In this document: positions 1 through 56,081 of the stretch, in pieces
Position numbering within the stretch: the first letter of the stretch is position 1
How the letters are laid out: every line of letters starts with the position of its first letter
Virus record (IMG/VR): IMGVR_UViG_3300035158_000293
Coordinates: 59,799 to 123,798 of that record
Length of the DNA stretch: 64,000 nt
Origin: a virus
Strand: one strand, 5' to 3'
Notes under the pieces: generated by a model
What the model saw: only the letters and a program-made list of their open reading frames with translations
Told to the model about the DNA's origin: nothing
Databases searched by the model: none
Program-made: the position numbers and the translations under genes

Positions 1-3000
1 GCCGTCACCACGTCATCTTCTTGGTCGTCGGAAACGAAGAACACCTTTACGGGACCATCCACGCCTGCGGGCATGATCGCTTTGTCATACTCGACACCAG
101 CAATCACGACCCCTGCGTCGAACACTTCGTAGTTGTCGAGGTCTTCGCCATATATGAACTCGTGTTTGCCGTAAACAGGGTAATACGGCAACGCTTCTTC
201 TGTATCGTCGGCTTCTGTCACACTCTCGTTCATGCGGGCCTTGATCCAGCTCTTGAAGCGGCTGTTCTTATCCTTTGCGGACACGATCTCTATTGTGTAG
301 TCGGACTCGAGCTTTTTGATCTCTTTGAGGAGGTCCGCCTTTTCATCCCAAGTATCTCCATCTAAAGCGTGTTTCATTCTCAAAATGTCGGGCCACTCTT
401 CCGACGGTTTGTCTCGCCACTCCATGTAATTGGTTACGTCCTCAAGCTGACTGATCCCTATGAGCAATTCGGACCCTTTGGGAATCTTCAAATCCCGATC
501 TTTTATAATCCACTCGCCCTCGTTCTTGTAAACCTGTCCAATGAGCTTCAATCCCTCTGTTATTTTGCGCTCAAGCTCTTTCATAGGGACTTCGTCCAAA
601 GCATCGGCGAAGCGCTTGTAAGTGTAGTCCTCCTCACGAAGCTTTGGAATGCCGACCTTCTTCAACCACTTTGCAATATCTCGCGGTCCTCGGATTTTCT
701 TGGGCGGGTTTTTTCGGGCTACGTCCGCCAACTTGCTGTGGCCAGCTATGTGTCGATTTTCCATCACAAGTGTTTTGTATTTCGAATCACTCTTGAACGC
801 CTCTATCATGTATTCGAACACGTTGCGGTAAACCTGTGTTAAACCTATCGGGGTCTTGCTCGCGTCAAACAAACGGTAGAGCGCGTCACAATTCTTGGCG
901 GTGAGATACATGGGGTTATCGTACATAACGCGGCTAACGGCGTTCTCTTCAACAAACGCACGCCCCGGCATCTTCAACGCGGCTGACTTGTTGAACAAGT
1001 ATTGGATGTCCTCGGAGCTACTGACACCCGCAGCGCCTTCGAGCCGTCTCTTTTTCAATGACTCAAGGTGAGACGGCTTGTACACGTCGAACGACAGGTA
1101 GAAAAATTCCGGTATGTCCGCGTCGGTGTAAGACGCCTCGACCAATGGCCGACCTGCAAACGTGGCCGTGTGCTCGTTTGTATCACCGTTAGGTAAACCC
1201 TTCATGTTCGTCTCTCCCAATTTATTGGTGCCACTCTCCAAAAGACCACGCTCTTTCAGTTTGTTGTAAGCCTCGTCCCCCAGCTTGTTTGCGATACTGT
1301 ACGGCATGTTCTTGAACACGTCGTTAATTATGTAGCCGGGTTCGGCTGCACCCCGCGAACGTCGGAAGAATGGGAGAAGCTGATCCAGTATGCCGTCTAC
1401 TGTGTGCCACTTATTACTGCTGGGTTTTTCTTTTTTGATCCGCTTGGCAAGCTCGGCAAGTGTGGCCTTGCGTACTTCCTGCGGCTCAAAGAACTGGTAG
1501 TCGAGAAGGCCCGTACCGGAACCCTCGCCGTACTCCTCTATGAACTCCTCACGAGTCATAGGTACAAACTGTCCGTAACGCTCACCTCTGACGTAAACCT
1601 TCGTGATCTGACGAGGTGACACCCGCCCAATGAACAACGCTTGAGGCTCCTGACCCTTGTCCAGTAGTCCGAACGAAACACTCGGTCGGAAAGACTTGGG
1701 GTACGACTTCCTCCAAAGATCGTCCTCGCGTTCCTGTTCTGCCGGGTTTTGACTGAACAGGTCTTTACCCTGCACCGTGAACCGCAGGATAACGGGTCCG
1801 AACTTTTCGGCTGTTTTGTAGTCCGGCGCGACAAACAACCCACGGTCAAGCCGCTTGCCTCCTGAATAGTGCGGGTAAAGACGGTGTGTTGGCTTGGTGG
1901 CGTCGACGCCTTTGCGGACAAACTCCAAGGCGGTTTTTTGGTCTGTGCCGTGGAACAGTTGGAGTTTGGTGTTGGGCCGTAGCCGTGCGATGCTTCCGCG
2001 CTTGCCTTCATGGAGAGCTTCGGATTCCTCCATCCGCTCCCGCGTTCCAACGCCCTCATTCACCAGCCGTAGTTCGCCATGAGGCACGTCAAACGGGTTG
2101 TCGTAACCTTTGTCAACCGTTCGGAACCAAACACGCCTGTCAGAGCCTTCGGCAAACCGTTTGATAGCCGCATCTGTCTTTGCCACGGCCACTACCTTGT
2201 CACCTTCCCTGACGTTGTACAGGTATTTGCCACGGTGTGTCTGCGTAATAATGTAATCACCGGGTGCGGGTGACGACCACCCTTGTGTACTCTCAATTTT
2301 GAGGTTCCTCTGCGCAAGTTCCTTCATGTGTGCCTGCGTCAACTTTTTTCTGCGGGATCGGCGTTTGCGCGGTTTCATGCCGGGTCGCGCATGGCTCATA
2401 GGCACTACCTGCACGTCGGTGATACCGCTTTTCTTCAACCAATTCTTAACACGGGACACCATGTTCTGATCAAGCACCAGCACCTTGTCCAACCATTCAG
2501 GACGAAACTTGAAATCCCCTCCCCGCAACCATTCGTCTTCTTCCGCGTACTGTTCCATGAAAGCGTCGAGCATCATACCGCGCTTGACGTCCCAAAAATC
2601 ACCGACGAGGTAGTCCTCATATTCTTCCTCTTCGAACGGCTCCCCATCTTCATCAAACACACCTCCCTGAGCAGCGGCGGACGCCAACTCGTCGGGGGTT
2701 TCAATAACCCCGCCCTCCGCGTCAAAAAACTCCTCATACGGGAAGGTATCCATAGCCATGCCGTATGCTTGCTCCGCAGCAACATCGGTCATTTCGGGAG
2801 ACTGTGCGAGGACGTATTCAACAGCCGTTGGGTTTTCGTCAAACCAGTCCTCGGTGTAGTGGACCTCTGTAAAGTGTGATTCGAGTGGTTTGCGATGGAA
2901 CGCTAAAATCACATCGTGATGTGTCCCGAACATCCCACCTTCAAGCGGATAAGTCGAAAGGCTGACGAAAGCGGGTCCGCCCATGTATGATGCGTTGGCT

Positions 3001-3104
3001 TTCAACGTCCGGGATTTGAGGATGTCCCTGAGAGCTTTGTAGTGTGTGGTGTGAAAGAAGTGCTTGGTCTGCGCTTCGAACAGAGAAATTCCGCTGTTAC
3101 CCAT
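1..3104 (-). CDS. Large polyvalent protein (>1030 aa, runs off the window edge) with two ADP-ribosyltransferase-like domains
   Basis: Absent from the ORF track because there is no stop in the window. Manual translation is open from ATG 3104 (GGAAGGA upstream) to position 1. Motifs: FFHTTHYKALRDILKSRTL..FVSLS..EEDEW and LFHGTDQKTALEFVRKGVD..RGLFVAPDYKTAEKFG. Confidence 0.7.
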   Translation of the reverse strand, partial: MGNSGISLFEAQTKHFFHTTHYKALRDILKSRTLKANASYMGGPAFVSLSTYPLEGGMFGTHHDVILAFHRKPLESHFTEVHYTEDWFDENPTAVEYVLAQSPEMTDVAAEQAYGMAMDTFPYEEFFDAEGGVIETPDELASAAAQGGVFDEDGEPFEEEEYEDYLVGDFWDVKRGMMLDAFMEQYAEEDEWLRGGDFKFRPEWLDKVLVLDQNMVSRVKNWLKKSGITDVQVVPMSHARPGMKPRKRRSRRKKLTQAHMKELAQRNLKIESTQGWSSPAPGDYIITQTHRGKYLYNVREGDKVVAVAKTDAAIKRFAEGSDRRVWFRTVDKGYDNPFDVPHGELRLVNEGVGTRERMEESEALHEGKRGSIARLRPNTKLQLFHGTDQKTALEFVRKGVDATKPTHRLYPHYSGGKRLDRGLFVAPDYKTAEKFGPVILRFTVQGKDLFSQNPAEQEREDDLWRKSYPKSFRPSVSFGLLDKGQEPQALFIGRVSPRQITKVYVRGERYGQFVPMTREEFIEEYGEGSGTGLLDYQFFEPQEVRKATLAELAKRIKKEKPSSNKWHTVDGILDQLLPFFRRSRGAAEPGYIINDVFKNMPYSIANKLGDEAYNKLKERGLLESGTNKLGETNMKGLPNGDTNEHTATFAGRPLVEASYTDADIPEFFYLSFDVYKPSHLESLKKRRLEGAAGVSSSEDIQYLFNKSAALKMPGRAFVEENAVSRVMYDNPMYLTAKNCDALYRLFDASKTPIGLTQVYRNVFEYMIEAFKSDSKYKTLVMENRHIAGHSKLADVARKNPPKKIRGPRDIAKWLKKVGIPKLREEDYTYKRFADALDEVPMKELERKITEGLKLIGQVYKNEGEWIIKDRDLKIPKGSELLIGISQLEDVTNYMEWRDKPSEEWPDILRMKHALDGDTWDEKADLLKEIKKLESDYTIEIVSAKDKNSRFKSWIKARMNESVTEADDTEEALPYYPVYGKHEFIYGEDLDNYEVFDAGVVIAGVEYDKAIMPAGVDGPVKVFFVSDDQEDDVVT

Positions 3105-3209: not shown

Positions 3210-6200
3210 TTATGCGAGCATGCCGTAGCCGTCACCAACCTCCAAATCACCTTCAGCCGAAACCATCATGGTTCCGCATTTGGGGCACTCCATGCCCCGC
3301 GCGGTTGACTGTTTCGGTCCTGTGGAGTAACCACAGCCCGGACACCGCATGAGCCCCACAGACATCGCAAAACCACCGCTGGAGAAACCACCCGTGCTCG
3401 CAGTTGTAGTGACTTCCTTGAGCCTTTTTGCGGTCTTGCCTGTGAAGCCGCTCTCTTGATACTTCTTGTACGCCAACTTGTCGAACTTGCCTTTCTTGGC
3501 TTCCCTCTCAAACTGATCCCGCATCATCTCTGCGGCTCTCTGACGTATCTGTGGAGTAACGTCGAGATAAGGAATGCCTACAACCTTGGAGGCACCTTTG
3601 TACGCCGCATTGGACAGAGTGAGAAACTTCTTCACCGCCTGCTCGCGGTCGTAGTCACCTTTGGCGACGTGGTTGATCATCGACCTGCAAGCTTGCTGCC
3701 ATGCGGGTTCCGCGGCCATTTGAATCGTTTTGACAATGAAGTCCGCCATCTTCTTACCATACGGCGTTTCTTCATCGCCTTCTCCTTCATCGAGGTGTTC
3801 CACGCTCTCCATGAACATGCGGACCTTGCGCTGTATCTCCGCCAACCGTGCTGTTTTGTCTAATTTGAAATTGTCGTCCTCTTCATCCTCGTCGGGGTCG
3901 TACTTAGGGCGCGTAGCCTTGATAACAGCCATTAAGTCAACCGCCTCGTTCAACGCTTCGGGAAACAACTCACGACGTCGTGCTTTGACCCGTTCTATCA
4001 TAGGCTCCCATGAACCATATCCGGGATCAAGACGCTCACCATACTGACGCAACGTGTCGGGTGTCATGTACCTTTCTTGTCCGCGCTCTTCAAAGCGTAG
4101 TAACACGCGGCAATCACTCCCGTCGCTCTCGTTTGGGCCGTTTACAAACAACAGACCGACACTCTCCAAATGCACCGACGATTCCCCGATGATTTGCATA
4201 GGCCAATTCTGCTTGACGATGGGCAAGTAAACACCCTCGCTGGTTGAAGCGTTTGCACCAAACGATACCTGATTGAACGGCACCGGCTTGTGTCGGCTAA
4301 GGTGTGCAACCTGCCTTGCGAGTTTGGTCTGTTTCGGGGTTGAGTAGTCGAACGTCTCTTGGAGATTTGACACAACGTCAAACCCTTCAACCACGTAATC
4401 TTTCGGCTTATGTGTGTAAGGGGATAAACCAACAGGCAATCCGGTGGGAGGTACGAATGCGTCAGGGTTGTTGCTCAAATACTCCTCCATGTCCTTGCGT
4501 AGTATCTTCATCAAACCCCTCTTGTCGCCATCCTTTTCAGGGTCTGTTATTTGATCGTTGAAAACCTCCATGAAACGCTGCGCCCACCAAGGGTTCTGAG
4601 GCACGGTAAAGAGTGTTTGCTTCTTGGGGTCGTTCAACGCCCGCCCTATTTCTGCAATGCTGTAATTATTCAACTGCGCAGACTCACCGAATAACTCTTG
4701 CAAATACGATAGGTAGTTTTGTACCTCTGGTTTAAGCCCTTTGAACTTCTCCACGGACTCCAAGTAGCTCTCTTTATCGGTCCGCCCTATTTCTTCAATC
4801 TTGTTACCGCCCTCGCTACTAACCTTAACCAACCAAATTTTTTCGTTCCCCTCGGCATCAACTGCGGCGTAATATGCTTTGCGGTATAATTTCCCTTTGT
4901 GTTTACCTACGCCTTCTGTTTCCTCGTACTTCTCTATGGTATCGAAGGTTAGGTTTTTCAAATCCTCAACCGTTCTACTCACACGGTCAGGAATTACAGG
5001 GCTCGACGGCGGCGCGGGAGGGGCCTCTGTAACGGTAGGCTCAGAATCCAAACCCTCACCGGTGATTTTCTTCTTAATCTTAGCATACCACTCACGAACC
5101 TGATCAAAACCTTCTTTTACATCGTTGCCATAGGTAACATACTCGGCAGCACCTTGATCTATATACCCACCGCGATCCTCAACCTCCTTCAACAAGTCTT
5201 CATTATTCCACGGATAGGTCAACGTAAGATTGAACCCTTCCTTGGACCCTGTCGATTTGGTTGCGCTGCGCTGTACTCCCTCGTCTGTAGTGTAAATCCC
5301 AAAGTAAATGCTCGCCGCGTCTAACCGACCTTGATTAACGGCGTTCAACAACTTTGTAAGGTTGACACTAATACCCGCAGGACCAACCTTTGACGTAAAT
5401 GCTTTAGGCTTTGAATCGCTGGGAGAGAGTTTCAAAGCCCCTTTAACGGTGAAGCCGCCCTCGTTTACTACCTGCTCCTTCGGGATGTTGTTCTTGACCC
5501 ACTCGCGCAGCTCAAGGATTTTAGGATCGGTGGCCGCTTCCTTGGAGTCTTTGACAAACTCCGTGTAAACCTTACCCACGGCTTTCATGGCTTCCTTGAA
5601 AGCCTTAACACTCGGCACCGCCTCTATACCCTCGGACTTGAGGTATTCCTCAACCTGCTTTTCAGTCACAACCATTACATCGCCGTCTGGAACTTCAAAG
5701 GCGAACACACGGTGTACCAAATCAAATCCGCCACCATATGTAGGTAAGTCCTCGACCTGCAAACCCGCCCACTTCAACGAGAAGTCGCGGCCTGCCTCTT
5801 CACTTTTCAAACCCATGCCTTCAACCGCATCACCAGAGATGATCTTCACGTTGACTACAGGCTTGACTATGGGAACCCCGTAATTTGAGAACTCTTGTGT
5901 TGTAGCCTGAGTCTCCCCGTACTGAGAAGCAAACTCCGCTATCTTGACTTGCTTTTCGTCCGTATAGGTATCGGCTTCTTGATCTGCCGGTTTTTCGGCT
6001 TCTGTATCTGCCATAGCGTCGTCTTGTGTAGCGCCGGGTTCCAGATCAGGCTCCCCGGTTTCTTCGGGCGTTGGAATGTCCAACTGTTGCTCTCCGGGTA
6101 CGCCTTCGACGGGCCACATGTCACCGTCCTCATACATATCGAGCAACTGATCATCCCAAACGTGGGTCAGCGTGTCCTGCCCAAGTAGATACAGCAAATA

Positions 6201-8039
6201 GAGAGGATCACCGTCAGGGTCGTTAATGACCGCGTAGATGTACGCCTTATTACCCGACGTATCGGTAACGTAATCCTTCAATTTGACCGGGCTTCCGTTC
6301 GCTTTGGCTGCCTTTGCAAAGTCGGTAGTGTGGATATTAACCATCTCAACACCGGCTTCAGCAATGTCTTGCAATTCCGGCTGTGTCGCCACGTAAGCTT
6401 CGACCTCTGTACGACGGATGTCGTCAGAAGGAACGTCAACCTCTGTCTCGGGGACCGCGGAACTGGGTAGAGAAGCCCCGACGTAATCACCCCACTCGGT
6501 GACAACTTTGTTCGTCAACTTCGACAGGCTGTGAATGTACTTTTTCAGAACGGCTTTGATGGACTTCTCGCTCGGCATGACCATCCAATCGCCAAGCTTG
6601 TCCTGCCATTTGCCGTTGGCCTGCACCGTATAGGTTGCGAAAGGTTTCCCCTGCTCCACACCGAAGCCACGAGTCTCCACCGTCATGGTGTTGTACATCT
6701 CGCCGGTAGCTCTCACAAGGAACTCAACGCGCAGATGTGGGAGCCCGACGCCCGGACCATAACCGGGGTCTTTTTGTGGTTCAACGTAAGCCACAAGCAC
6801 CGCTGTGTCGGGTTGCCCTCCGGTTTTCGTAGTGTTCGTTTTTTCCACCGCCACAATAACGGGGAAGGAACCACCCAACTTGATCGTGTCGGGAATGTTT
6901 CCAGACTGGGCAAGTCGATCAGCCACGGGCTTCAACGCCTTGCGTAACGCGGGTTTGTATCGCGCCAAGAGCTTTTCCAACTCTTTCACGGTGTACTTCT
7001 TTTTAAGCCCTTGTTTGCGACGGTGTTTCGTCTTGAAGTAGTACTTCTTGGGGAACTTCTTGGCCTTGGCTTCATACAACGCAACAAGATCAGACCTGTC
7101 GTACAGACTTTCACAAATGCGAGCCTTTGCACGAGTCAATTGCGTGCTTGACATTGAGTCAAACCGCTCCCGCAGACGCTCTATGTCTTCTGTAAGCGGT
7201 GTCCAATTCTCTGCGTCCGTAGTCACCCATCGAACCTTTTGGGCATCCTCTGCCACCACCCTGATTCGACCACCTATACGATGAAGCTGTGCTTGTTCCA
7301 AATCCACGTCGAAGAGGTGCTCCACAAGCTTGCCAGCGAGCACCTTTTCAACCACGGCCTCCTCATATTTCTTCATGGTGTCTTTCGCCAACTCCGGCTC
7401 TTTTTCTGGCTTCTTGTCTTCTTCCTCCTCTTCGCTACCTTTGTCTTTCTTTTTTGTCGCGGGTCCGGGACGTCCACCCTTGACGGGCTTGCCTTCAAGG
7501 ATAACCACATCAGACACCACCCCGTCTTCGGGAGCCACCGAACCACCATTCACCAGCATATCGAAGGTTGCGATGCTGCTCGTAGTGCTTCTCAGACGCT
7601 CAAACTCCATATCAGACCACTTGCCCTCGAAAATAGCGAGGAAGGAACTACTTCCGGGGCGTACCTGCGTCTCCACGAATTTCTCATACAGGTCACGACG
7701 CTTGGTTAAAAGAAAGGTTTCAAATTCCAGAGCGGCCATGCCGGTGTCAGAGTTGGTGTACGTGGCGTCCTTCTCTATGAATTTCTTGGCAAACTCACGA
7801 GCATCGACGCTCCCCAAAGCAACCGCTGTCTCCGTGATCAGATCAATATATGCCGCCGGATGTGCAACCGTCTCGCCCGTGATTGTAGTGGGAAGGTCAA
7901 GCCTGTCCCGCATGTCAGCGATGCGATCATAGAGAGAAACGTCGAGCTTGTCCACAAGGTCCGCCTCCAAGCGGCCTTCTTCAAGAGCTTGACGCAGACG
8001 TTTGCCTGAATACAGCGTGCATTTGGGTTGGGCCTTCAT
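3210..8039 (-). CDS. 1609-aa hypothetical protein, probably virion/internal head protein, with C-terminal Zn ribbon
   Basis: Long ORF with GGGAGG RBS, acidic linkers, many (L/I)xE motifs and C-terminal CPGC..CPKC. Confidence 0.6.
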   Translation of the reverse strand: MKAQPKCTLYSGKRLRQALEEGRLEADLVDKLDVSLYDRIADMRDRLDLPTTITGETVAHPAAYIDLITETAVALGSVDAREFAKKFIEKDATYTNSDTGMAALEFETFLLTKRRDLYEKFVETQVRPGSSSFLAIFEGKWSDMEFERLRSTTSSIATFDMLVNGGSVAPEDGVVSDVVILEGKPVKGGRPGPATKKKDKGSEEEEEDKKPEKEPELAKDTMKKYEEAVVEKVLAGKLVEHLFDVDLEQAQLHRIGGRIRVVAEDAQKVRWVTTDAENWTPLTEDIERLRERFDSMSSTQLTRAKARICESLYDRSDLVALYEAKAKKFPKKYYFKTKHRRKQGLKKKYTVKELEKLLARYKPALRKALKPVADRLAQSGNIPDTIKLGGSFPVIVAVEKTNTTKTGGQPDTAVLVAYVEPQKDPGYGPGVGLPHLRVEFLVRATGEMYNTMTVETRGFGVEQGKPFATYTVQANGKWQDKLGDWMVMPSEKSIKAVLKKYIHSLSKLTNKVVTEWGDYVGASLPSSAVPETEVDVPSDDIRRTEVEAYVATQPELQDIAEAGVEMVNIHTTDFAKAAKANGSPVKLKDYVTDTSGNKAYIYAVINDPDGDPLYLLYLLGQDTLTHVWDDQLLDMYEDGDMWPVEGVPGEQQLDIPTPEETGEPDLEPGATQDDAMADTEAEKPADQEADTYTDEKQVKIAEFASQYGETQATTQEFSNYGVPIVKPVVNVKIISGDAVEGMGLKSEEAGRDFSLKWAGLQVEDLPTYGGGFDLVHRVFAFEVPDGDVMVVTEKQVEEYLKSEGIEAVPSVKAFKEAMKAVGKVYTEFVKDSKEAATDPKILELREWVKNNIPKEQVVNEGGFTVKGALKLSPSDSKPKAFTSKVGPAGISVNLTKLLNAVNQGRLDAASIYFGIYTTDEGVQRSATKSTGSKEGFNLTLTYPWNNEDLLKEVEDRGGYIDQGAAEYVTYGNDVKEGFDQVREWYAKIKKKITGEGLDSEPTVTEAPPAPPSSPVIPDRVSRTVEDLKNLTFDTIEKYEETEGVGKHKGKLYRKAYYAAVDAEGNEKIWLVKVSSEGGNKIEEIGRTDKESYLESVEKFKGLKPEVQNYLSYLQELFGESAQLNNYSIAEIGRALNDPKKQTLFTVPQNPWWAQRFMEVFNDQITDPEKDGDKRGLMKILRKDMEEYLSNNPDAFVPPTGLPVGLSPYTHKPKDYVVEGFDVVSNLQETFDYSTPKQTKLARQVAHLSRHKPVPFNQVSFGANASTSEGVYLPIVKQNWPMQIIGESSVHLESVGLLFVNGPNESDGSDCRVLLRFEERGQERYMTPDTLRQYGERLDPGYGSWEPMIERVKARRRELFPEALNEAVDLMAVIKATRPKYDPDEDEEDDNFKLDKTARLAEIQRKVRMFMESVEHLDEGEGDEETPYGKKMADFIVKTIQMAAEPAWQQACRSMINHVAKGDYDREQAVKKFLTLSNAAYKGASKVVGIPYLDVTPQIRQRAAEMMRDQFEREAKKGKFDKLAYKKYQESGFTGKTAKRLKEVTTTASTGGFSSGGFAMSVGLMRCPGCGYSTGPKQSTARGMECPKCGTMMVSAEGDLEVGDGYGMLA

Positions 8040-8170: not shown

Positions 8171-9079
8171 CTAGTCCCACTCCACCTGTTCCGTCTTGTC
8201 CATGAAGGTCACGCCAGCAGGCCACTTTTCGGGGACCATTATCATGTAGTCCGTGAAAACTCGCGGGGAAAGAACATCGTCTTTCAACGCCACCTGCACG
8301 GCCTCGAACAGGTGAAACGCTTGGCAATTCCCCAAGGTGTCGGCATGCTCCCACACAAACAACCGACGTGTAGACATACGGCCTCGCCCCGCCGACCGGC
8401 TAAGGTCGAACATGTGGATGATGGCTTCCCACAGAGCATCCAAATCGGCGTAGGTAAAGCCTGTGTCTGCGGCGAGCATGGGGTTGACGAAACCTTCTGC
8501 GACGTACAAACCGTAAGGGATCGTGTACTTGGAACCCATCTCCGTCTCGCTTTTGTGCGAGTCCGTTTTCTCCTGCGTAGTGTACGCCACCCGCGTGATC
8601 ATGTGGTTTTTGATCAGAACACGGCTCACCGACCGAGCATCTGTTATCTGTACCGGCCCTGTAACTTGTCCGTTGTTGAACGCCGTAGTGCTCATTACCG
8701 CACCGAACGCCCGTACATCGAAAAAGTTTGCGCACATCCAATCCCGCGCCTGCGCAATGTCGTCCTTTGTGGCTTTCTCGGGGTCGATTTTCAAATTATC
8801 GTAGGACATCCTCTGACGACTCTCGAGAGCGTGCCCCGCCAGCACGAAGATGTCCTGCCCCTTTTCGACTTTACCGCCTTGCGAGTGCTTGTAGTAGTGA
8901 AAGTCCCGTATCTTGCGCTTCAGGCTTCCGTTGGAAACAAGCCCTTGAAATGTTTCCGGGTCCGTCCGTGGAGCGTTGTTGAAATCGGGATCACCGTTGG
9001 GGTTTCCGTCCACACAATCGAACATGATGAGAAAATCGTACCGCCGGTCAACTACCTTGTCACGTTTGGCGTCTGCCAT
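8171..9079 (-). CDS. cas7c: Type I-C Cascade backbone Cas7c (Csd2)
   Basis: RRYDF..DCVDGNPNGDPD.NNAPR.DPET..GLVS...LKRKIRD; FFDVRAFGAVM; GPVQ; EMGSKYTIPYGLY; SRSAGRG. Confidence 0.95.
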   Translation of the reverse strand: MADAKRDKVVDRRYDFLIMFDCVDGNPNGDPDFNNAPRTDPETFQGLVSNGSLKRKIRDFHYYKHSQGGKVEKGQDIFVLAGHALESRQRMSYDNLKIDPEKATKDDIAQARDWMCANFFDVRAFGAVMSTTAFNNGQVTGPVQITDARSVSRVLIKNHMITRVAYTTQEKTDSHKSETEMGSKYTIPYGLYVAEGFVNPMLAADTGFTYADLDALWEAIIHMFDLSRSAGRGRMSTRRLFVWEHADTLGNCQAFHLFEAVQVALKDDVLSPRVFTDYMIMVPEKWPAGVTFMDKTEQVEWD

Positions 9080-9133
9080 TTTGTGATCCTTTCGTTTTTT
9101 GTTTGTTTCAACCTTTTTTTTTCAACATAACCC

Positions 9134-9605
9134 GTTTTCAATCCGCGCACATGTGCGAGTGTTACTGTTGGTGCGAGTGTTGGATTTGAACCCTTCACAG
9201 TTTTCAATCCGCGCACATGTGCGAGTGTTACCTCACCCATGCGATGGGCTGTGGCAGAATGTTTTCAATCCGCGCACATGTGCGAGTGTTACCCGGTATG
9301 ATCCGTCTCTCCCTTTCAATCCGCGCACATGTGCGAGTGTTGCTGTGATAAACTATCGGTCTGATCCTGTCTTTCAATCCGCGCACATGTGCGAGTGTTA
9401 CCACCTGACCGCTTTTCCTTTTTTCAATCCGCGCACATGTGCGAGTGTTACCAATGGACGCTCATCCAGCTTGCAGTTTTTCAATCCGCGCACATGTCCA
9501 AGCGTTACTTTATTTTCAATCCGCGCACATGTACGAGTGTTGTCATGTCCTCCATGATCGGCTCAACTTTGTGTCTTTCAATCCGCGCACATGTGCGAGT
9601 GTTAC
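9134..9605 (-). CRISPR. CRISPR array with 9 type I-C-like repeats and 8 spacers of 34, 29, 19, 26, 18, 25, 3 and 30 bp
   Basis: Plus-strand consensus GTTTTCAATCCGCGCACATGTGCGAGTGTTAC (32 bp, first 2 nt variable) starts at 9134, 9200, 9261, 9312, 9370, 9420, 9477, 9512 and 9574. The reverse complement ends GGATTGAAAAC like I-C repeats. Confidence 0.95.
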
Positions 9606-10027
9606 TGGCTTTCGGTAGTTTCCGTTTCGGCCTCCTTTCTGGCGATAGCTTCCTCTGCCTGCTGTCGATCATGGGCTTTTTGGTGGTAAAAACCGACGGC
9701 GAAAAGCGCCTGATCTTCCGGGCTTTGCTGTGTCGGGAACCGCTCTATTCGATTCATTACGTCTGTCACCCGCTGGTCAATCGCGTGGCCTGCCGCCACA
9801 ATCGCGGGGTTGCGTGATCTCTTGAGTTTCGCAATGTGGTAGCGAGCCTTCGGGTTCATCTCGGAAAAAGCTTGATCCGGTACGACCGCGGCGTTACGGA
9901 AAAACTGCTCGGCAACCGTCCGCTGTATCTTGAAAATGGCTTTGTACTGCAAAGTGTCGTAGATAGCCAGCAAACGCCCACACAGGTAGGCGGGGTGGTT
10001 ATTGTTGTGGTCCAATTGCGCTTCCAC
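9602..10027 (-). CDS. cas11c: Cas11c small subunit from an internal in-frame start within cas8c
   Basis: GAGGAGG-GCAAC-GTG in frame, just before LDHNNNHPAYLCGRLLA. This is the known position of hidden Cas11 in I-C systems. 141 aa. Confidence 0.75.
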   Translation of the reverse strand: MEAQLDHNNNHPAYLCGRLLAIYDTLQYKAIFKIQRTVAEQFFRNAAVVPDQAFSEMNPKARYHIAKLKRSRNPAIVAAGHAIDQRVTDVMNRIERFPTQQSPEDQALFAVGFYHQKAHDRQQAEEAIARKEAETETTESQ

Positions 10028-11446
10028 GTTGCCCTCCTCTAAATCATTCAAACATACCCGCAGAAGTGCAAGTTTCTGTGACGCCCTCTGCATAGGGTCA
10101 GTACAAAAAATCCTTTCCAACAACCGTGAGAGCACTCGTCGGTCGAGCGGTTCGTTGAACAGCGCCCGCCACACCAAACTCTGCTGGATGTGGTCCTCTG
10201 GACTTTTACCTTTTGTCGCCGCACCCTCCATTGCGGGGTCTGCAAGTGTTTTTTGTAGTTTCCACAATGCGGGCGCTCGAACAAAGCGTCCGCTGTAGGG
10301 GCTCTGAACTCGCACGTCGTGGAACCATTGCCACACGTTTTCGTATATCTCCCCTATGGTGTTGTCATCGTACCGCCGCACGATCATGCGGGACATGTTC
10401 GCTGTAACGGTAAGTGAGTGAAAGCGCAAATCCGTAACCTGTGGTAGTGGTTCCGATTCTGTTCCTGCACCAAAAACTTGACACAACGTCAAACCCTGCT
10501 TCGGAGCATCCAGAACAGCACTTACAATGTCCGGGTCGGGGTTGTTCACGAACTCCATCGGAGGGTGTAAAACAGGTTCGTCGGTCCAGCACAGTAGTGC
10601 CGCGCCCCGGATATTGTATCGCGTTCGCACCTCTTTCTCGGACCTGTACCGGAGCAGATCGTTCAACGCCATAACATACGCTTTGGATGCTCGTATGCTC
10701 ATCGGGCAGTTTTGATTTTGTTTCCATCCAAACGACTCGAACGCCGCACGATTAAACGATATGAGCGATACACCCGAAGGCATACCCCCGATATTGGTGC
10801 AATGTTTGATTTTATCGTGCGTCCGCGACAACGGTCCATACTCCCCCGTCACAATACAGTATCCGTGCCCCGCGGAAGCGTGGCGTTCGAAAACACCCTC
10901 CTCGTAGTAATCTGCCCAATACTGTCGCAGGGCCTCACGCTCGACCACAGGTTCAGGTGAAGTGCTTCCGGGGATTGCGCAGTATAACGCCAACCGATTG
11001 TTGGCTACAACACCTCGTTCAACAGCTAACTCTCTGGCCTTTTTGACCACTTCGGGGTCCGCATAGAACGCCACACACGCCTTAACCGCTGGATCGTCGG
11101 TAACGTCTGCGATTGTATTCCACAATTCAACCGAGGCAACGTGACGTTCGTTGTGATTTCGCTCTTTACCTTCCGGTGTCCATGCGGGGTCCGCCCCCAA
11201 AATATACTGCACCGCGTCGCACCCCGGTAGTGGGTACAACCCGCCGGACCTGTGGTGCGGAGATTTGGGGGCTGAAAGGGTTGTTTGACCTTCCGGTGCA
11301 ATATCTTCAAAAGGCATAATGTCCACAAGCCCGCCTTTTGCATCGAGAGCAACTACGAAGTGTACCAAACCCTCTTCAAACGCTGGGTTGTTCAACTCGT
11401 CAGACAGGTTGCTTTCCGCATAGGCACACAAAGCCTTCAAATACAT
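9602..11446 (-). CDS. cas8c: Type I-C large subunit Cas8c (Csd1)
   Basis: Lies between cas5c and cas7. Motifs CIVTG..RTHDKIK, GVSLISFNRAAFESFG..Q, AYVMALNDLL, PAYLCGRLLA, FAVGFYHQ. Start moved to MYLK at 11446 (GGGGGG RBS). Confidence 0.92.
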   Translation of the reverse strand: MYLKALCAYAESNLSDELNNPAFEEGLVHFVVALDAKGGLVDIMPFEDIAPEGQTTLSAPKSPHHRSGGLYPLPGCDAVQYILGADPAWTPEGKERNHNERHVASVELWNTIADVTDDPAVKACVAFYADPEVVKKARELAVERGVVANNRLALYCAIPGSTSPEPVVEREALRQYWADYYEEGVFERHASAGHGYCIVTGEYGPLSRTHDKIKHCTNIGGMPSGVSLISFNRAAFESFGWKQNQNCPMSIRASKAYVMALNDLLRYRSEKEVRTRYNIRGAALLCWTDEPVLHPPMEFVNNPDPDIVSAVLDAPKQGLTLCQVFGAGTESEPLPQVTDLRFHSLTVTANMSRMIVRRYDDNTIGEIYENVWQWFHDVRVQSPYSGRFVRAPALWKLQKTLADPAMEGAATKGKSPEDHIQQSLVWRALFNEPLDRRVLSRLLERIFCTDPMQRASQKLALLRVCLNDLEEGNVEAQLDHNNNHPAYLCGRLLAIYDTLQYKAIFKIQRTVAEQFFRNAAVVPDQAFSEMNPKARYHIAKLKRSRNPAIVAAGHAIDQRVTDVMNRIERFPTQQSPEDQALFAVGFYHQKAHDRQQAEEAIARKEAETETTESQ

Positions 11447-12147
11447 CGCAATTCCCCCCACGCCTTCCTGTCCAAAACCACGAAGGGGTCTGTATTGATG
11501 ACCCCATCACGCATGACCGCTCGGTAGAACACGGGCGTGTTGTGGCCGTTTTCCCTGTAGACGATGCCGTACAACATTGTCCCCAAATCCTTCGTGACAG
11601 GAATGGGGGTGCCTTCATCGCCTGTCAGACACGTTATGTTTGCGGCATACTCTCGACATCCGAGGTACGGTTGGTGAAACTGTTGCCCCTCCCGTAAGCG
11701 ACGCAGGAACATCTCCTTGTATTTGGTCGGTCTGCTCTGTTTGTCCGCTCGATGAACCTTCGGATATGCCGTCACAATGTAGTCAACGTCCCGCAAGATT
11801 CGCCCTGTGCGGTTTGTTGTGTGCCTCGCTTGTCCCGCACCGCCCGGCTGTGGTCGGTAGGTGGAGGGGTCGCCCATCCACCGCTTTACCGTGCGCGGAG
11901 CAACTTTATTGAGGAGTTCGTTCGTCGCAAAGCTCTGCCATTTGATGGGTTTCAACACCGCAATGCTGGTGATTATCCAAATGAATTCGGGCTTCCCGAG
12001 GATAGCCCGCAGAGCACCGCGTAGTGCAGACGGTGTCGGCACCTCGTAGGATACTCGTTCAGCCTTCCCCTCGGGTCGTGTGAAACACGCCAAAGCCCCT
12101 CTGATCCTCACCGTTACGCTCGCGTGTTTTTGTCTTGTGGTAGTCAT
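11437..12147 (-). CDS. cas5c: Type I-C Cas5c (Cas5d), crRNA-processing subunit
   Basis: GALACFTRPEGKAERVSYEVPTPSALRG, KPIKW, NEL, LRDVDY, PYLGCRE, DLGTML. Start at MTTT 12147 (AAGGGGG RBS). Confidence 0.95.
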   Translation of the reverse strand: MTTTRQKHASVTVRIRGALACFTRPEGKAERVSYEVPTPSALRGALRAILGKPEFIWIITSIAVLKPIKWQSFATNELLNKVAPRTVKRWMGDPSTYRPQPGGAGQARHTTNRTGRILRDVDYIVTAYPKVHRADKQSRPTKYKEMFLRRLREGQQFHQPYLGCREYAANITCLTGDEGTPIPVTKDLGTMLYGIVYRENGHNTPVFYRAVMRDGVINTDPFVVLDRKAWGELRCI

Positions 12148-12169
12148 GCACACCCCCTTTTTTATTTTT

Positions 12170-12198
12170 AGTTTACCCGGTGGAGCGAGTTTTGTCAA
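12170..12198 (-). promoter_or_regulatory. Sigma70-type promoter of the cas operon
   Basis: TTGACA-17bp-TAAACT with T-rich upstream tract, about 22 bp before the cas5c ATG. Confidence 0.8.
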
Positions 12199-12239
12199 GA
12201 AAAAGCAAGAAAAAAATTTAGGCGCACATGCAATCACGG

Positions 12240-12659
12240 TCAATAAGTGCGTTCCTGAAAGGTTTGGCGCATTCTATCTACGACAAATTGGATAACGTGC
12301 TCCATTAAAGAACGTATAACCAACTGTCCGTGCTCCTCCAACAGCTCTTTGGCGGCTTGTGACACAATTTCGCTACCCCAACTGCCAACGCTCGCACCCC
12401 CACTCGTACCTTCGCTATCCAAGTACTCCTTAACAGCTTCCTTGAAGTAGTCTCGCACCTCTTCCTTGATCATTTCCCGTAAAAGTGAAGGCTTGCTCTC
12501 ACCGCCTTTTTTGCGGGGCTTGGTGAATTCTTCGATCTCTTGCTGGATTATCTGGTTCCGAGTGTCTTCGTCCATCGTTTCAACAAGGCTCTCGCGAATT
12601 GCTGCTTTCACACGAGAAGACCACACATCCGCAAGGTCTGGTTTAACATTGTAACCCAT
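12240..12659 (-). CDS. Hypothetical protein
   Basis: ORF with GGAGG RBS before MGYN. Confidence 0.6.
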   Translation of the reverse strand: MGYNVKPDLADVWSSRVKAAIRESLVETMDEDTRNQIIQQEIEEFTKPRKKGGESKPSLLREMIKEEVRDYFKEAVKEYLDSEGTSGGASVGSWGSEIVSQAAKELLEEHGQLVIRSLMEHVIQFVVDRMRQTFQERTY

Positions 12660-12705
12660 GACTACCTCCTTCATGTTTGTTCCACAAAACGCGCACAGCC
12701 GTAGC

Positions 12706-13026
12706 TCACGTTGTTTTCTTGGGTCTTATGATGCGTTTCTTGCCCGGTCGTTTGCCGATGCGTTTTACGACCTTCTGTGGCTTTTTTGGTTTCTTCGGTT
12801 TCTTCGGTTTTCTAATCCGTTTTTTAGCGCGGTGAAGGTTATCGTACCGGTCAACGTGCAGTTTGCCGTCAGCATCTTTGACTTGGCAACATACCTTACT
12901 TTTGCCTGCACGCCCCACGAGGGTACCTGATCGTCTTACTACCTCCCCCGAGGCCCGGTCAAAAAACGTGAAGAGAACGCGGTCGCCCGGTCTAAAGCCG
13001 TGTGTATCAAAGGCTTCACCCGCCAT
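12706..13026 (-). CDS. Hypothetical protein with SH3-like start and Lys-rich tail
   Basis: FRPGDRV motif, KPKKPKKPKKP tail, GGAG RBS. Confidence 0.55.
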   Translation of the reverse strand: MAGEAFDTHGFRPGDRVLFTFFDRASGEVVRRSGTLVGRAGKSKVCCQVKDADGKLHVDRYDNLHRAKKRIRKPKKPKKPKKPQKVVKRIGKRPGKKRIIRPKKTT

Positions 13027-13330
13027 TGTCTTCTCCATCGGCCTCTTGAGCACCCGACAACCGAGCCAACGCAAGGGTCAAGCTCCGCGCCGTGTAGCCC
13101 TCATTCTCCACTACCACATGCGACAACGCATCCACCGCACTATCAACCGCATTTTCCAGCGCGACGGCATCCCCTGCCTCAACCAACGCCCGAAAGTGAT
13201 CTGCGGTAACACCACAAAATACCCGTACCAGCGTCGTGTCACCGAGTTTGATCTCAGCATAAAGATCGGAAGAGTAGTCCATCTTGCTGCCCCCAGTCAG
13301 TTTAACCGGTTTGTCATGTCGCGATGCCAT
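13016..13330 (-). CDS. Hypothetical protein
   Basis: ORF directly downstream of the promoter at 13361-13389, with GGGGG RBS. Confidence 0.5.
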   Translation of the reverse strand: MASRHDKPVKLTGGSKMDYSSDLYAEIKLGDTTLVRVFCGVTADHFRALVEAGDAVALENAVDSAVDALSHVVVENEGYTARSLTLALARLSGAQEADGEDNGG

Positions 13331-18341: not shown

Positions 18342-18414
18342 AGCTGGGGATGGGAATTGAACCCACAACCCCCGGTTTACAAAACCGGCGCTCTGCCAAT
18401 TGAGCTACCCCAGC
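18342..18414 (-). tRNA. tRNA-Thr(TGT)
   Basis: GCTGGGGTAGCTCAATTGGCAGAGC; anticodon arm CCGGT-TTTGTAA-ACCGG; GGTTCAATTCC. No encoded CCA. Confidence 0.95.
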
Positions 18415-24590: not shown

Positions 24591-24711
24591 CGGGACTCAA
24601 ACCCTCTACAAGAAGTGTACAGCATGATTCACACATGTGCAACCATAAAATCTACTTTTTACAGCATGGCCGGGGTGATATGCAAATAATACATTGACGT
24701 TGTGTCAACAT

Positions 24712-24744
24712 AAAAAGACGCCGTTGGTCGGGCAACCAACGGCG
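24712..24744 (-). terminator. Intrinsic terminator
   Basis: CGCCGTTGGT-TGCCCG-ACCAACGGCG followed by TCTTTTT. Confidence 0.8.
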
Positions 24745-24822
24745 CGGCGGACCTATTTCTACCGTAACGAGCTTGTGGTGCTGTCTCCTGTGAGGAGATG
24801 CAGAGCCAACATATATAATATA

Positions 24823-25476
24823 TCACATCCAACGGGGTTTGTCAAGTGGAGGACTTAGTAAATGGAAGGTTTCGCCGTGAGGTCTATCCCACGCCTTATC
24901 ATAAGTAAAGAAGGCGTAAAGGGTTGAGTCAACTTTACCATCTCCGGTAAAAGATGGTCTTTTTGACACAAACGCCATGTGTCTTGGGAATATCTCCTCT
25001 TCGTGGAACTTACGGCGCGAATCAGACTCCATCCACGCAGCTCGTAACAGCAGTAGCACCACGCCGTCGTCTTTCGTAACAGCAAGGCACTTACGAACGA
25101 AAGGCAAAAGAATTTCGGAAGAGTACGGGGGATTGGTAGCTACAACATCGAACTTGAATTCCGGGGGTGCCCACTTCAAAAAGTCTGTGCAGGTGTCACA
25201 AACGTCGAACAGCCCTTTTGGAGGGGACACCTCTCGAACATCCACACCACGCACTTCGCACGAGGGCCAACGTGTCTTAACCACTTGTGCAAAAGGTGCG
25301 TGATCACCACACCCCGGCTCCAAAAATTTTTCGGGTGCGGTTTGTAGAGGAAAAGCATCGAAGAAGGACTGAACCAACGCCAACGGCGTCTGGTAATTGT
25401 CATTGGCTATGCGTTTGCGCTTGGGTTCTTTCTTAACAGGTTTCTTGACCCGCTTAGGTCTTTTGTGTACGCGCAC
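24823..25476 (-). CDS. DNA N6-adenine methyltransferase
   Basis: DNYQTP, FLEPGCG, DFL, VATNPPY, LLLR, RPSFTGDGKVD..YAFF. Confidence 0.85.
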   Translation of the reverse strand: MRVHKRPKRVKKPVKKEPKRKRIANDNYQTPLALVQSFFDAFPLQTAPEKFLEPGCGDHAPFAQVVKTRWPSCEVRGVDVREVSPPKGLFDVCDTCTDFLKWAPPEFKFDVVATNPPYSSEILLPFVRKCLAVTKDDGVVLLLLRAAWMESDSRRKFHEEEIFPRHMAFVSKRPSFTGDGKVDSTLYAFFTYDKAWDRPHGETFHLLSPPLDKPRWM

Positions 25477-25520
25477 ATCGCCCCCTTTTGTCTTTTGAAC
25501 TCCTACGTCTGTAGGTTTGG

Positions 25521-27461
25521 TTACGCTTGTACTCGTTCGAGTAATTCTACCCGCTCGGTTAATTCCTTGATCGCTTGAATAAGCACGGGGATGAGCTTCT
25601 GTGGCTTCATTCCCCACGTTTCACAATCCTCATCCTTCGGCTTATGAACCACCTCCGGGATGTGTTTGTAGACGTCTTGTGCAATGAGTCCGATCTGCTC
25701 TTTCCTATGTGGTTCATCAACGACCAAATGGTCATCCTCAACGTGCCAATCGTGTATCTTGAACCGCTTGGGCTCCAATGCGCAGATGGTTTCGAGTCCG
25801 TAGTTCAAGGCTCTAATGTCACTCTTAATCCTGCGGTCCGAAGCAACCGCCCACGACAACGTACCCGACCCGTTCGTCGTAAGCTGGTCGCCGTCATCGC
25901 CGTCGGCATCCGGCAAGACCCAAATCTGATCGGCTGTCAAAGCGGGGGCTTCAAACCCAACGTAATTGGAAGAACCCGAATCATAGAAGCGCAACTCCTT
26001 ACGATTCCACAAGGCTGCGTAGTTTTGTGCTACTGTAAAAGCGAGTGCGCCGTTAAAACCAACGGAAAATGTGTCGGCACCCGGAGCCGTGAGTTTCGCG
26101 ACGTTACTAGTACCACTCCCAAACACAAACGTATTGTCATTAGCCCCTGTGTCAACATACTGCCCTATGGCACAGGACACCTCTCCAGCAGCAATCGCGT
26201 AGTGGCCGAAGGCCAGAGCCCGATCACTTGTCGCATCCGAATAATAACCATAGGCAAATGACTGGTTCGCTGTTGAATCACACGCATTGCCTCCCGCAAA
26301 CGATCCGCTGCCTGTTGCGGTACAACTCCTTCCGAAACCAACGGAGTACGCACCTATTGACCCCAAGGCGGATGCAGGACACCACATAGCCCGAAAAGCT
26401 CCGTAATCCGTAGTGTCATTGTAAAACCGCAGGTATAAGTCATTCGTGGTGTCCTCGGCTTCGAAGCCTGAAGAGCCATCAGACATCTGGATTGCATACT
26501 GTGAACCAGTAGAGGAACCGCCCCCAGCGTCTTCCCATGAAAGAGTACCATCGCCTGCGGTTGTTAGAACCTGCCCATTTGACCCGTCAGAGTCGGGCAA
26601 GACCCAAATCTGATCGGCTGTCAAAGCAGGGGCTTCAAACCCAACGTAGTTGGAATTATCGGAGTCGTACCAACGGAATTCATTGGCGTTCCAGAGACAA
26701 GCGTACCCCTCTGCAACAGTAAAGTCCGGCTTGTCAACATTACCTTTGTTGAAACCAACGGAAAATGTCGAAGCCGCCGGTGCCTTGCACCGCTGCGTAC
26801 TGGAAACGCCCTGCCCGAGGATAAGCGCGTTGTTATAGGCGGAGGTCACATACTGCCCGATCCCGCAGGAATAGTCACCGGAAACAGTATTGTGCCGTCC
26901 AAACGCCGCCGAGTACTCACCGCTAACGCTGAGCGAGCTACCTGCGCCAAACGCGCTCTCACCGCTGACTGTGCTGTGCGAGCCAAGGCAAACTGCCCGT
27001 GCCTCACTCGCGGTACAGTTATATCCTCCTGCAAACGAATTAGCGCCAGTAGCATCTGTGCTCTCACCACACGCAAACGCCGATAACCCTGTGGCATTCG
27101 TGCGAGTACCACAAGCGAACGAGGCCCATCCCGAGGCTTCCGTATCGTGGCCGGTGGCAAAAGATCGATGTCCGATAGTCCCTAAACCATTAGGGAAGTA
27201 CCCTACACGGAAAGCGCCGTCGTTTGTTGTGTTGTTGTAGCAACGGAAGTAAATATCGTTCGCAGTATCTTCGGAGTCGAGACCTCCCGATCCGTCCGAT
27301 ATTGGAACAGCGTATTGAGAGCCGCTACCAACCACGTCCAATCGTCTCCACACAGCCCCGTCATAACCCCGGAAATTGGTACCGTCAAACTTTACCAACC
27401 CCGCGTAAGCGGCTGAAGTGTTTGCGTATGCGATAACACCTTTGCGTCGTCTGAAAGCCAT
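25521..27461 (-). CDS. Tail fibre/adhesin with YadA-head-like repeats and C-terminal peptidase S74 chaperone
   Basis: 14-aa S(F/V)AxG repeats; SDRRIKSDI..IGLIAQDV..LIQAIKEL coiled coil. Confidence 0.85.
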   Translation of the reverse strand: MAFRRRKGVIAYANTSAAYAGLVKFDGTNFRGYDGAVWRRLDVVGSGSQYAVPISDGSGGLDSEDTANDIYFRCYNNTTNDGAFRVGYFPNGLGTIGHRSFATGHDTEASGWASFACGTRTNATGLSAFACGESTDATGANSFAGGYNCTASEARAVCLGSHSTVSGESAFGAGSSLSVSGEYSAAFGRHNTVSGDYSCGIGQYVTSAYNNALILGQGVSSTQRCKAPAASTFSVGFNKGNVDKPDFTVAEGYACLWNANEFRWYDSDNSNYVGFEAPALTADQIWVLPDSDGSNGQVLTTAGDGTLSWEDAGGGSSTGSQYAIQMSDGSSGFEAEDTTNDLYLRFYNDTTDYGAFRAMWCPASALGSIGAYSVGFGRSCTATGSGSFAGGNACDSTANQSFAYGYYSDATSDRALAFGHYAIAAGEVSCAIGQYVDTGANDNTFVFGSGTSNVAKLTAPGADTFSVGFNGALAFTVAQNYAALWNRKELRFYDSGSSNYVGFEAPALTADQIWVLPDADGDDGDQLTTNGSGTLSWAVASDRRIKSDIRALNYGLETICALEPKRFKIHDWHVEDDHLVVDEPHRKEQIGLIAQDVYKHIPEVVHKPKDEDCETWGMKPQKLIPVLIQAIKELTERVELLERVQA

Positions 27462-27501
27462 GCCATCTCCGCACGAAACAAGGGAAATTCACACAGCTAT
27501 T

Positions 27502-27930
27502 CTAGCCCTCGCTCGCCGCAATGTCAACATCTGTTGGAGGATGTGCTTGTACTGGTGCGGTAATCGCTACGAAAGTCTTGTAAGGGTTCTTGAAGCCCAA
27601 CCGCCGAAAAAGAAACGCCAACGGTGTTTTCCAAAACATGAAGGAAATAAAGCGCGTAAGCCAACCGAAGGTGTTTATCAGAAAATCGACATCCACCAAC
27701 CGTTCCCCGGAAGGCACTTGTGCCTGTACTTGCGCATAGACACGAGTGAACACAAGCTCGGAAACTACGCGGTTTCTTACTGCTTTCAACCGATTCGTTG
27801 CAGAAGCGTCGCTGGACGCCGCGATTTTCTGTTCGAGAGCATCTCGCGCTTCAGCCAACGGGTAGTCTGCAAACTCTTGCGCTTCCTCGGGCAACCCTTC
27901 CAATTCCCCCAAGGTTTCGTAAACTCTCAC
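27502..27930 (-). CDS. Hypothetical protein
   Basis: AGGAGG RBS before GTG. Confidence 0.55.
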   Translation of the reverse strand: MRVYETLGELEGLPEEAQEFADYPLAEARDALEQKIAASSDASATNRLKAVRNRVVSELVFTRVYAQVQAQVPSGERLVDVDFLINTFGWLTRFISFMFWKTPLAFLFRRLGFKNPYKTFVAITAPVQAHPPTDVDIAASEG

Positions 27931-27938
27931 ACGGCCTC

Positions 27939-30215: not shown

Positions 30216-30256
30216 GACAACCCCCTAATCGACTCGATTGGTGTAGTTATTATGGT

Positions 30257-30517
30257 TTACAGCGGGCAGTTTCCATTCGGGCACTCTGGTCCGCTGAAAC
30301 TGTCTGCCCCTGCGTTGAAAGGTTTGTGCTTACCGTTTTTACCGTTGGTTCCGTTGGTTCTGTACACGCCGTTGGTGCCGCCTATACGGGCCAAACGGTT
30401 CTCAGGCAAACGAAGTGCTCCAAACGCCTCCAACCATTGATACAATGCGGACAACTCCTCGTCCGCTACGTCGTAAGTGTAAGTGCCACCGTCACTTTTG
30501 ATTGTAACCTCTGCCAT
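30257..30517 (-). CDS. Hypothetical protein
   Basis: AGGAG RBS; C-terminal CPNGNCPL. Confidence 0.5.
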   Translation of the reverse strand: MAEVTIKSDGGTYTYDVADEELSALYQWLEAFGALRLPENRLARIGGTNGVYRTNGTNGKNGKHKPFNAGADSFSGPECPNGNCPL

Positions 30518-30520
30518 CTG

Positions 30521-56074: not shown

Positions 56075-56081
56075 GACTACC

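Follow-up and report, generated by a model that had tools for sequence, protein, structure and literature searches.

A CRISPR array with short, irregular spacers embedded in a phage type I-C cas operon

The type I-C operon and its embedded array

The DNA considered here (the window) is the terminal 64 kb, positions 59,799 to 123,798, of a 123,798-base phage record, IMGVR_UViG_3300035158_000293, the completeness of which is approximately 75% according to CheckV. The long reading frames are all on the minus strand, and among them are those of a type I-C cas operon arranged as cas5d-cas8c(/cas11c)-array-cas7. The CRISPR array, which comprises nine repeats under a 32-nucleotide (nt) model, occupies positions 9134-9605 of the window in the orientation of the cas genes, and was delimited by repeat search and core scan.

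The first gene, cas5d (Cas5c; 11437-12147), encodes a protein of 236 amino acids (aa) from an ATG at 12147 which follows a GGGGGTG ribosome-binding site; we prefer this start to the TTG (12243) at which the listed open reading frame (ORF) begins. A consensus scan revealed a promoter-like site, TTGACA-17-TAAACT (12170-12198, minus strand), 23 nt upstream of the likely ATG, and this is a candidate for the operon promoter. Cas5d possesses Pfam Cas_Cas5d [2.5e-24] and NCBIfam TIGR01876 [133.9 bits, cut-off 85] motifs and matches the D. vulgaris I-C Cas5 [4e-38, 8DEX/7KHA] over nearly its whole length. The overall alignment reaches chains annotated as "pre-crRNA processing endonuclease."

The next gene, cas8c (Csd1; 9602-11461, minus strand), specifies a 619-aa protein identified through Pfam Cas_Csd1 [6.8e-93] and TIGR01863 [314 bits, cut-off 218.65], its homologs including PDB 8DEJ chain I [2.9e-33]; it aligns along nearly its full length with the solved subunits of the D. 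vulgaris and N. lactamica I-C Cascades. Residues 483-595 align with the separate Cas11 chains 7KHA_K and 8G9S_H, and a candidate internal cas11c frame (9602-10029, minus strand) has a GTG at 10027 (Cas8c residue 479) after GAGGAGGG. This strong ribosome-binding site suggests that Cas11c is translated from the internal GTG. The last gene, cas7 (Csd2; 8171-9079, minus strand; 302 aa), possesses Pfam Cas_Cas7 [2.2e-84] and TIGR02589 [280 bits, cut-off 182.25] motifs and its product is 60-62% identical to ordinary I-C Cas7 proteins. Alignment with 15 homologs gave about 90 invariant columns, all of which are shared by the phage protein. All three effectors thus exceed the curated cut-offs of the I-C-specific NCBIfam models.

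The junctions between the array and its flanking genes are close. The TAA stop codon of cas8c (9602-9604) lies inside the first repeat, R1 (as G-TAA-C), and because of this overlap there is no leader. On the other side the core of the last repeat, R9, is 56 nt from the cas7 ATG (54 nt from the end of the 32-nt repeat), and a terminator scan found no minus-strand terminator-like site after the array. The cas8c-cas7 gap is 522 nt with the array inside it; at the ten viral loci in which both genes could be placed the gap is 20-133 nt, and none of the ten contains a repeat.

Neither Cas3 nor an adaptation gene was recognized. Profiles for Cas3_HD, the Cas3-like C-terminal domain and cas3_core (PF18019, PF22590, TIGR01587), for Helicase_C (PF00271) and Helicase_C_2, and for Cas1, Cas2 and Cas4 (PF01867, PF09827, PF01930) gave no match in the 123.8-kb record, while the same pipeline, as a control, recovered Cas7.

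Just upstream of cas5d is a 144-aa ORF (12240-12674, minus strand) with a weak ribbon-helix-helix match [0.0085, below the Pfam cut-off]. Its product may regulate the cas genes.

Repeats, spacers and the search for targets

The repeats, all on the minus strand, are R1 (9574-9605), R2 (9512-9543), R3 (9477-9508), R4 (9420-9451), R5 (9370-9401), R6 (9312-9343), R7 (9261-9292), R8 (9200-9231) and R9 (9134-9165). A 30-nt core occurs nine times in the window, six times without mismatch, once with a single mismatch (R6) and twice with three (R2 and R3); it was found in none of 100 shuffled sequences and nowhere else in the record. The minus-strand unit is GTAACACTCGCACATGTGCGCGGATTGAAA(AC), the two nucleotides which extend the core to 32 being AC in R7-R9 only, and GA, AT, AA, AA, GA and GG in the others. 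Aligned with five ordinary I-C repeats the unit has 23-25 identical columns of 33-36, and it displays the I-C frame GT.ACAC...GCG.GGATTGAAA.C; where the canonical repeat ends in ATTGAAAC, this one ends in GGATTGAAA followed by AC in three of nine units and by variable nucleotides in the rest. The hairpin is retained in R2 by means of a G-U pair and is gone from R3.

The start-to-start distances on the plus strand are 66, 61, 51, 58, 50, 57, 35 and 62 nt, and the gaps between cores, read on the minus strand, are 32, 5, 27, 20, 28, 21, 31 and 36 nt. Taking the repeat as 32 nt, one obtains, in the order of transcription, the spacers S1 (9544-9573, 30 nt), S2 (9509-9511, a gap of 3 nt between the degenerate R2 and R3), S3 (9452-9476, 25 nt), S4 (9402-9419, 18 nt), S5 (9344-9369, 26 nt), S6 (9293-9311, 19 nt), S7 (9232-9260, 29 nt) and S8 (9166-9199, 34 nt), each length being uncertain by up to 2 nt because of the variable terminal dinucleotide. 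S8 contains an 11-nt copy of the 5' part of the repeat (9171-9181) and is therefore composite rather than a clean 34-nt spacer. Seven of the eight spacers are no longer than 30 nt, four (S3-S6) are 18-26 nt, and the clean ones, that is, those other than S2 and S8, are all 18-30 nt. Tandem Repeats Finder did not report the array, as its irregular spacing would predict, and Rfam gave no significant match to any CRISPR-DR family.

In ordinary I-C arrays the spacing is much more even. Six regular arrays with repeats of 32-33 nt, five from viral contigs and one from a metagenome contig, yielded 90 intervals of 64-70 nt, and a further array (L023), counted apart from these, yielded 115 intervals of 63-68 nt; L020, a duplicate of L019, and the loci with longer repeats (L024/L025, L030 and L034) were left out. 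Intervals of 63-70 nt correspond to spacers of 31-38 nt, and six of the eight phage intervals fall below 63 nt. The native I-C spacers of L. pneumophila are reported as 33-37 nt (PMC5602111). The first-pass annotation of this DNA had given the same array boundaries and spacer lengths, which agree exactly with our between-core gaps, and had set them against a normal I-C length of 33-37 nt, a range which both the L. pneumophila report and the comparator arrays bear out.

Certain viral I-C loci displayed repeats outside regular arrays. L024 and L025, viral contigs of 112-119 kb, carry I-C-like cas5-cas8-cas7 genes between two long arrays with 37-nt repeats (intervals 57-82 nt) and, in addition, a three-copy repeat stub, the intervals of which are 22 and 46 nt; the coordinates of these features are 734-802, 3752-5290 and 11063-13263. 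Solitary GGATTGAAA repeat ends occur 190-450 nt upstream of cas5d in two loci (L018:1008 and L021:7327), and a two-repeat stub with a 62-nt interval follows directly after cas7 (L029:3310-3372 / L030:10879-10941). These solitary ends and two-repeat stubs are candidates for regulatory elements resembling CRISPR RNA (crRNA).

That six cores are identical in an array without Cas1-Cas2 is one reason why its repeats look selected. The other is that random deletions would rarely spare all nine: in a crude simulation, 2,000,000 trials with deletions matching the observed sizes left every repeat untouched 81 times, and 300,000 trials with many small deletions did so 0 times. This backs the earlier suggestion that the conservation of the repeats speaks against unconstrained decay.

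Spacer targets were sought in several collections. Against the phage's own record the best matches (15/17 and 13/14, E at least 2.4) were at chance level, and a seed-anchored search of the same record which ignored every sixth base gave matches of no more than 12 positions, with no TTC motif. Nor was anything above chance level found in 420,720 bases drawn from 17 viral I-C loci and from the records of five related phages. A double 12/12 match of S6 in a piece of related phage (L036) had neither a TTC motif nor a shared context and was read as chance. The whole array matched five cultured phage and three plasmid records, all with E of at least 2, and 20-mers from three of the eight spacers (S1, S5 and S7) had no exact match in IMG/VR. 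We also considered whether the spacers copy neighbouring genes; S1 against cas8c (15/17) gave p of approximately 0.015 before correction for seven tests and lost significance after it, the others were at the null level, and the idea was dropped. The resemblance of S8 to a tRNA was likewise rejected, its T-stem being unpaired and the repeat fragment accounting better for its 3' half.

A 20-mer of the repeat was no more informative, with no match in viral contigs, three in metagenomes and one in genomes (596 Gb), and no array of this repeat among them. These matches were an orphan repeat on contig L010, with the remainder a hairpin and chance. The L010 orphan (4553-4584) is an I-C repeat situated approximately 370 nt outside a regular array, on its trailer side, the repeat of that array being a different one. 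The orphan resembles the phage repeat (28 of 33 aligned columns identical) more closely than it does the type of its own array. No cas5, cas8 or cas7 was found on this 7.5-kb contig, and the likeness to the phage repeat may be due to chance.

Readings of the array

The reading which we favour, with about even confidence, is that the array supplies fixed guides with which a phage type I-C Cascade, having no adaptation genes and, in this record, no Cas3, would silence by binding alone. We infer that the cas5d-cas8c(/cas11c)-array-cas7 region is transcribed as one unit from the promoter upstream of cas5d, and that Cas5d cuts each intact repeat to release crRNAs upon which the phage Cas7, Cas8c, Cas11c and Cas5d would assemble. 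Without a Cas3 to license, the complex would only bind DNA, and would presumably prevent a target in the host or in a rival phage from being transcribed or replicated. Because such complexes would act by binding alone, no full-length R-loop would be needed, and spacer length would be free to drift or be trimmed to what binding requires (about 18-30 nt) while the repeats were held by selection. A deletion bias which trims the spacers and leaves the repeats fixed would match the pattern observed, and in an array beyond renewal scars would be expected to accumulate.

Precedents for such guides exist. I-E spacers shortened by 6-18 nt form R-loops without locking or Cas3 cleavage (PMC6859484), I-B guides of 26 nt or less are described as repressing rather than cleaving (PMC10551041), and viral short-spacer RNAs are reported to form I-F complexes with four or five, not six, backbone subunits (Csy3) and to silence genes (bioRxiv 10.1101/2024.10.29.618823). 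Silencing by nuclease-less phage systems was itself proposed in PMC7162821. The first-pass annotation had stated that truncated guides let Cascade bind without triggering Cas3, and had supposed that they might build complexes with fewer Cas7 copies; the former is published, as these accounts have it, for I-E and I-B (PMC6859484, PMC10551041) and the latter, for Cas7-type subunits, in I-F (bioRxiv 10.1101/2024.10.29.618823). Its further proposal that the present guides are tuned for silencing fits the context, an intact phage Cascade operon with no Cas3 or helicase domain in the record, and falls short in that no target was found for any spacer.

Several observations weigh against this reading. 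The short-guide precedents include none of type I-C. The spacer lengths reveal no 6-nt step, the shortfalls from 34 nt being 4, 5, 8, 9, 15 and 16 nt, and the hairpin of the repeat, with 4 bp and -4.7 kcal/mol, is weak and no better than that of shuffled sequences. With the record about 75% complete, a cas3 gene could sit in the absent part, or a host Cas3 could serve. Searches with the repeat, Cas8c and Cas7 yielded no related array that would allow a test of spacer conservation, and all searches together gave no protospacer for any spacer. Most environmental spacers have no match in databases, and for this reason the absence of a target is not evidence against function. Part of the array, moreover, has decayed. 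The 3-nt S2 sits between the two most degenerate repeats, the 11-nt repeat fragment in S8 is a scar (we estimate by reasoning the chance of such an identity at about 1e-4 per spacer), and a GGTTGAAAC remnant resembling the 3' end of the repeat (9105-9113, minus strand) ends 29 nt after R9, upstream of the cas7 ribosome-binding site. All three look like deletion scars.

One might go further and suggest that the locus is a self-sufficient silencing module with eight hard-wired guides, the length of which (18-30 nt) would set Cas7 number and binding strength, and that Cas5d cleavage would free the cas7 message with a crRNA-like 5' end, so coupling Cas7 supply to guide production. We regard this fuller version as rather doubtful.

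The scars also accord with another explanation, which we think unlikely, that the array is a decaying relic: a captured Cascade module with an array that could not be renewed, its eroded spacers guiding nothing, and the module either leaving the phage or being kept for some other reason. The three mismatches in each of R2 and R3, which lie 3 nt apart, the lost R3 hairpin, the repeat fragment in S8, the repeat-end remnant past R9, the want of adaptation genes in the record and of any target, and the absence both of Cas7 from five related phage fragments and of a region of about 22 kb from the syntenic place in relatives G003 and G004 would all accord with it. The cas genes, however, are all intact and conserved, six of the nine repeats are identical, and the deletion simulations hardly ever spared all nine. 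Furthermore, a Cascade can be made only if transcription still runs through the array region, since cas7 is situated on its downstream side. One may also suppose, though it seems to us distinctly unlikely, that the array produces anti-CRISPR RNAs of the Cracr/Racr kind, in which the repeats count for more than the spacers. Such transcripts would soak up or reprogram host I-C Cas proteins, the promoters of host cas genes would be the targets of the short spacers, and the Cas proteins of the phage would help or compete. Viral arrays of two or three short pseudo-spacers are reported, nine of them aimed at I-C (bioRxiv 10.1101/2024.10.29.618823), and solitary-repeat RNA anti-CRISPRs are described (PMC10651486). 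The combination of conserved repeats with loose spacer length is as one would expect, and the module adjoins two DNA methyltransferases, which are typical counter-defence cargo. Against this, the phage has its own complete Cascade, which a hijacker could do without; searches of 596 Gb of genomes (one chance match) and of metagenomes (three matches) revealed no host array built of this repeat; the 17 viral I-C loci contain no cas promoter match; and the preprint describes a screen which drops elements within CRISPR-Cas loci. The first-pass annotation had pointed to the two repeats 3 bp apart as a spacer-less decoy of this type. The R2-R3 pair is the only part of the array to fit the solitary-repeat form, and it makes a poor candidate because both repeats are the most degenerate of the nine and R3 has lost its hairpin, so this suggestion is weak.

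The position of the array invites a further explanation, to which we assign a low probability, namely that the repeats act as operon punctuation. They would be Cas5d cut sites which detach the cas7 message from that of cas5d-cas8c, either fixing the ratio of Cas7 to Cas8c or exerting feedback on the translation of cas7, and neither the content nor the length of the spacers would matter. In its favour are the placement of the array precisely in the cas8c-cas7 gap, in which none of the ten viral loci has a repeat, the cas8c stop within R1, the want of a minus-strand terminator-like site after the array, and the handle-like GGTTGAAAC just ahead of the ribosome-binding site of cas7. Punctuation, though, would need no more than one or two repeats and nine have been kept, and no precedent was found in the literature searched. 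Punctuation is compatible with the favoured silencing reading and the two are not exclusive. Finally, the units might be something other than CRISPR repeats; each has a 12-bp palindrome, CGCACATGTGCG, which might be an operator for a regulator such as the neighbouring weak ribbon-helix-helix protein. The palindrome is perfect in seven of nine units, and the candidate regulator is placed just upstream of cas5d. We nevertheless consider this highly improbable: the units carry the I-C repeat frame, matching five I-C repeats in the columns given above, they share the cas orientation inside an I-C operon, and the palindrome occurs nowhere else in the record.

Related systems and the phage surroundings

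Phage I-C systems without Cas3 and viral short-spacer arrays are already known; the present locus belongs to I-C and is set apart by its layout. Compared with the canonical I-C systems of D. vulgaris and N. lactamica (PDB 7KHA, 8DEX, 8G9S), it shares Cas5d, Cas8c with a candidate internal Cas11c, Cas7 and a repeat frame ending in GGATTGAAA. It differs from them in having no Cas3, Cas1, Cas2 or Cas4 in the record, no leader and a hairpin of 4 bp, and in that its array lies between cas8c and cas7 rather than after cas2, with spacers of 3-34 nt as against the 33-37 nt reported (PMC5602111). The I-C variants of huge phages (Al-Shayeb et al. 2020, PMC7162821) are described as similarly phage-borne, with a Cas5d-type processing subunit, no Cas1 or Cas2, and a compact array (their median is 6 repeats). 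Unlike this record, which has no Helicase_C or Helicase_C_2, they are said to have a helicase in place of Cas3, and neither an array between cas8c and cas7 nor irregular short spacers are mentioned in that account, the supplementary tables of which may bear on both.

The Cracr arrays (Liu et al., bioRxiv 10.1101/2024.10.29.618823) are, as described in the preprint, also virus-borne, with several units per transcript and spacers below canonical length: 21-24 nt for the pseudo-spacers of the I-E example, with 18-26 nt tested. Some of their repeats are degenerate and poorly processed, and their complexes have fewer backbone subunits. They differ in having two or three spacers, in using host Cas proteins and in being copies of host CreR/CreA, where the phage array has eight spacers and no known host counterpart; they are, moreover, defined outside CRISPR-Cas loci, and this array is inside its own cas operon. 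The Cracr criterion is given as at least 9 bp proximal to the protospacer-adjacent motif matching a host cas or toxin promoter (bioRxiv 10.1101/2024.10.29.618823). The engineered shortened-spacer Cascades of I-E (PMC6859484) and I-B (PMC10551041) are presented as laboratory constructs and belong to other subtypes, unlike this natural I-C array of mixed lengths. In the literature searched we found neither a Cas3-less phage I-C operon in which eight guides of mixed, sub-canonical length are placed between cas8c and cas7 nor a first repeat that provides the stop codon of cas8c, though supplementary tables may list either.

Should the short units load and bind, the locus would be a natural I-C example of a nuclease-free phage Cascade with mixed sub-canonical guides, and would extend both the engineered I-E and I-B results and the host-dependent viral Cracr RNAs. 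Its compact layout, leaderless, with the array between cas8c and cas7 and the stop codon in the first repeat, might be reused as a single-transcript cassette for multiplex repression. If on the other hand the spacers are dead, the locus would still be one in which selection keeps the repeats of an array unable to acquire spacers, and a function for the repeats in their own right would have to be sought.

Elsewhere the record encodes a portal protein, a terminase-like protein, a DNA polymerase and an SbcC-like nuclease, and the window has five tRNA genes on the minus strand, four clustered near its end (61531-62229) and one at 18342-18414. Gene order on either side of an accessory island of about 22 kb (window approximately 8040-30520) is shared with phages related by the portal (46-52% identical), the terminase-like protein and the polymerase; in place of the island G003 and G004 have only 1.5-3 kb. 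Besides the cas module the island carries two N6/N4 DNA methyltransferases (one with a helix-turn-helix), a tRNA, NUDIX, ThyX, a SEC-C motif protein, a protein with a tail-fibre chaperone domain and ribonucleotide reductase. Cas7 was found in none of five portal-related phage records, all five being fragments. For Cas8c the closest relative in a set of 5.8 billion clustered proteins has 36% identity, and single-query searches gave no viral relative of Cas8c or Cas7. The G+C content of the module (0.52-0.54) equals that of the phage, which together with the distance of Cas8c suggests, from sequence comparison, that the module has long resided in the phage. The absence of the island and of Cas7 from relatives, taken with these two properties, points to accessory cargo rather than a fresh capture from any sampled host.

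Directly downstream of cas7 is a 1609-aa ORF (3210-8039, minus strand) with no Pfam, PHROG, NCBIfam or Atlas match, parts of which are 31-34% identical to syntenic counterparts in G003 and G004, both without a cas module. It was considered as a Cascade-linked effector, an idea dropped in view of the want of a family match and of these partial homologs in relatives free of the module; it probably represents a giant core or structural protein of the phage and no partner of Cascade. Beyond it a 3604-aa ORF crosses the start of the window (1-3104, minus strand, and on to genome positions 52088-62902). A second giant ORF of 3524 aa is located at genome positions 24624-35198, and just upstream of it in the minus-strand sense, outside the window, is a 22-nt unit repeated four times in tandem (seed CTTATGTGTG, genome 35346-35421).

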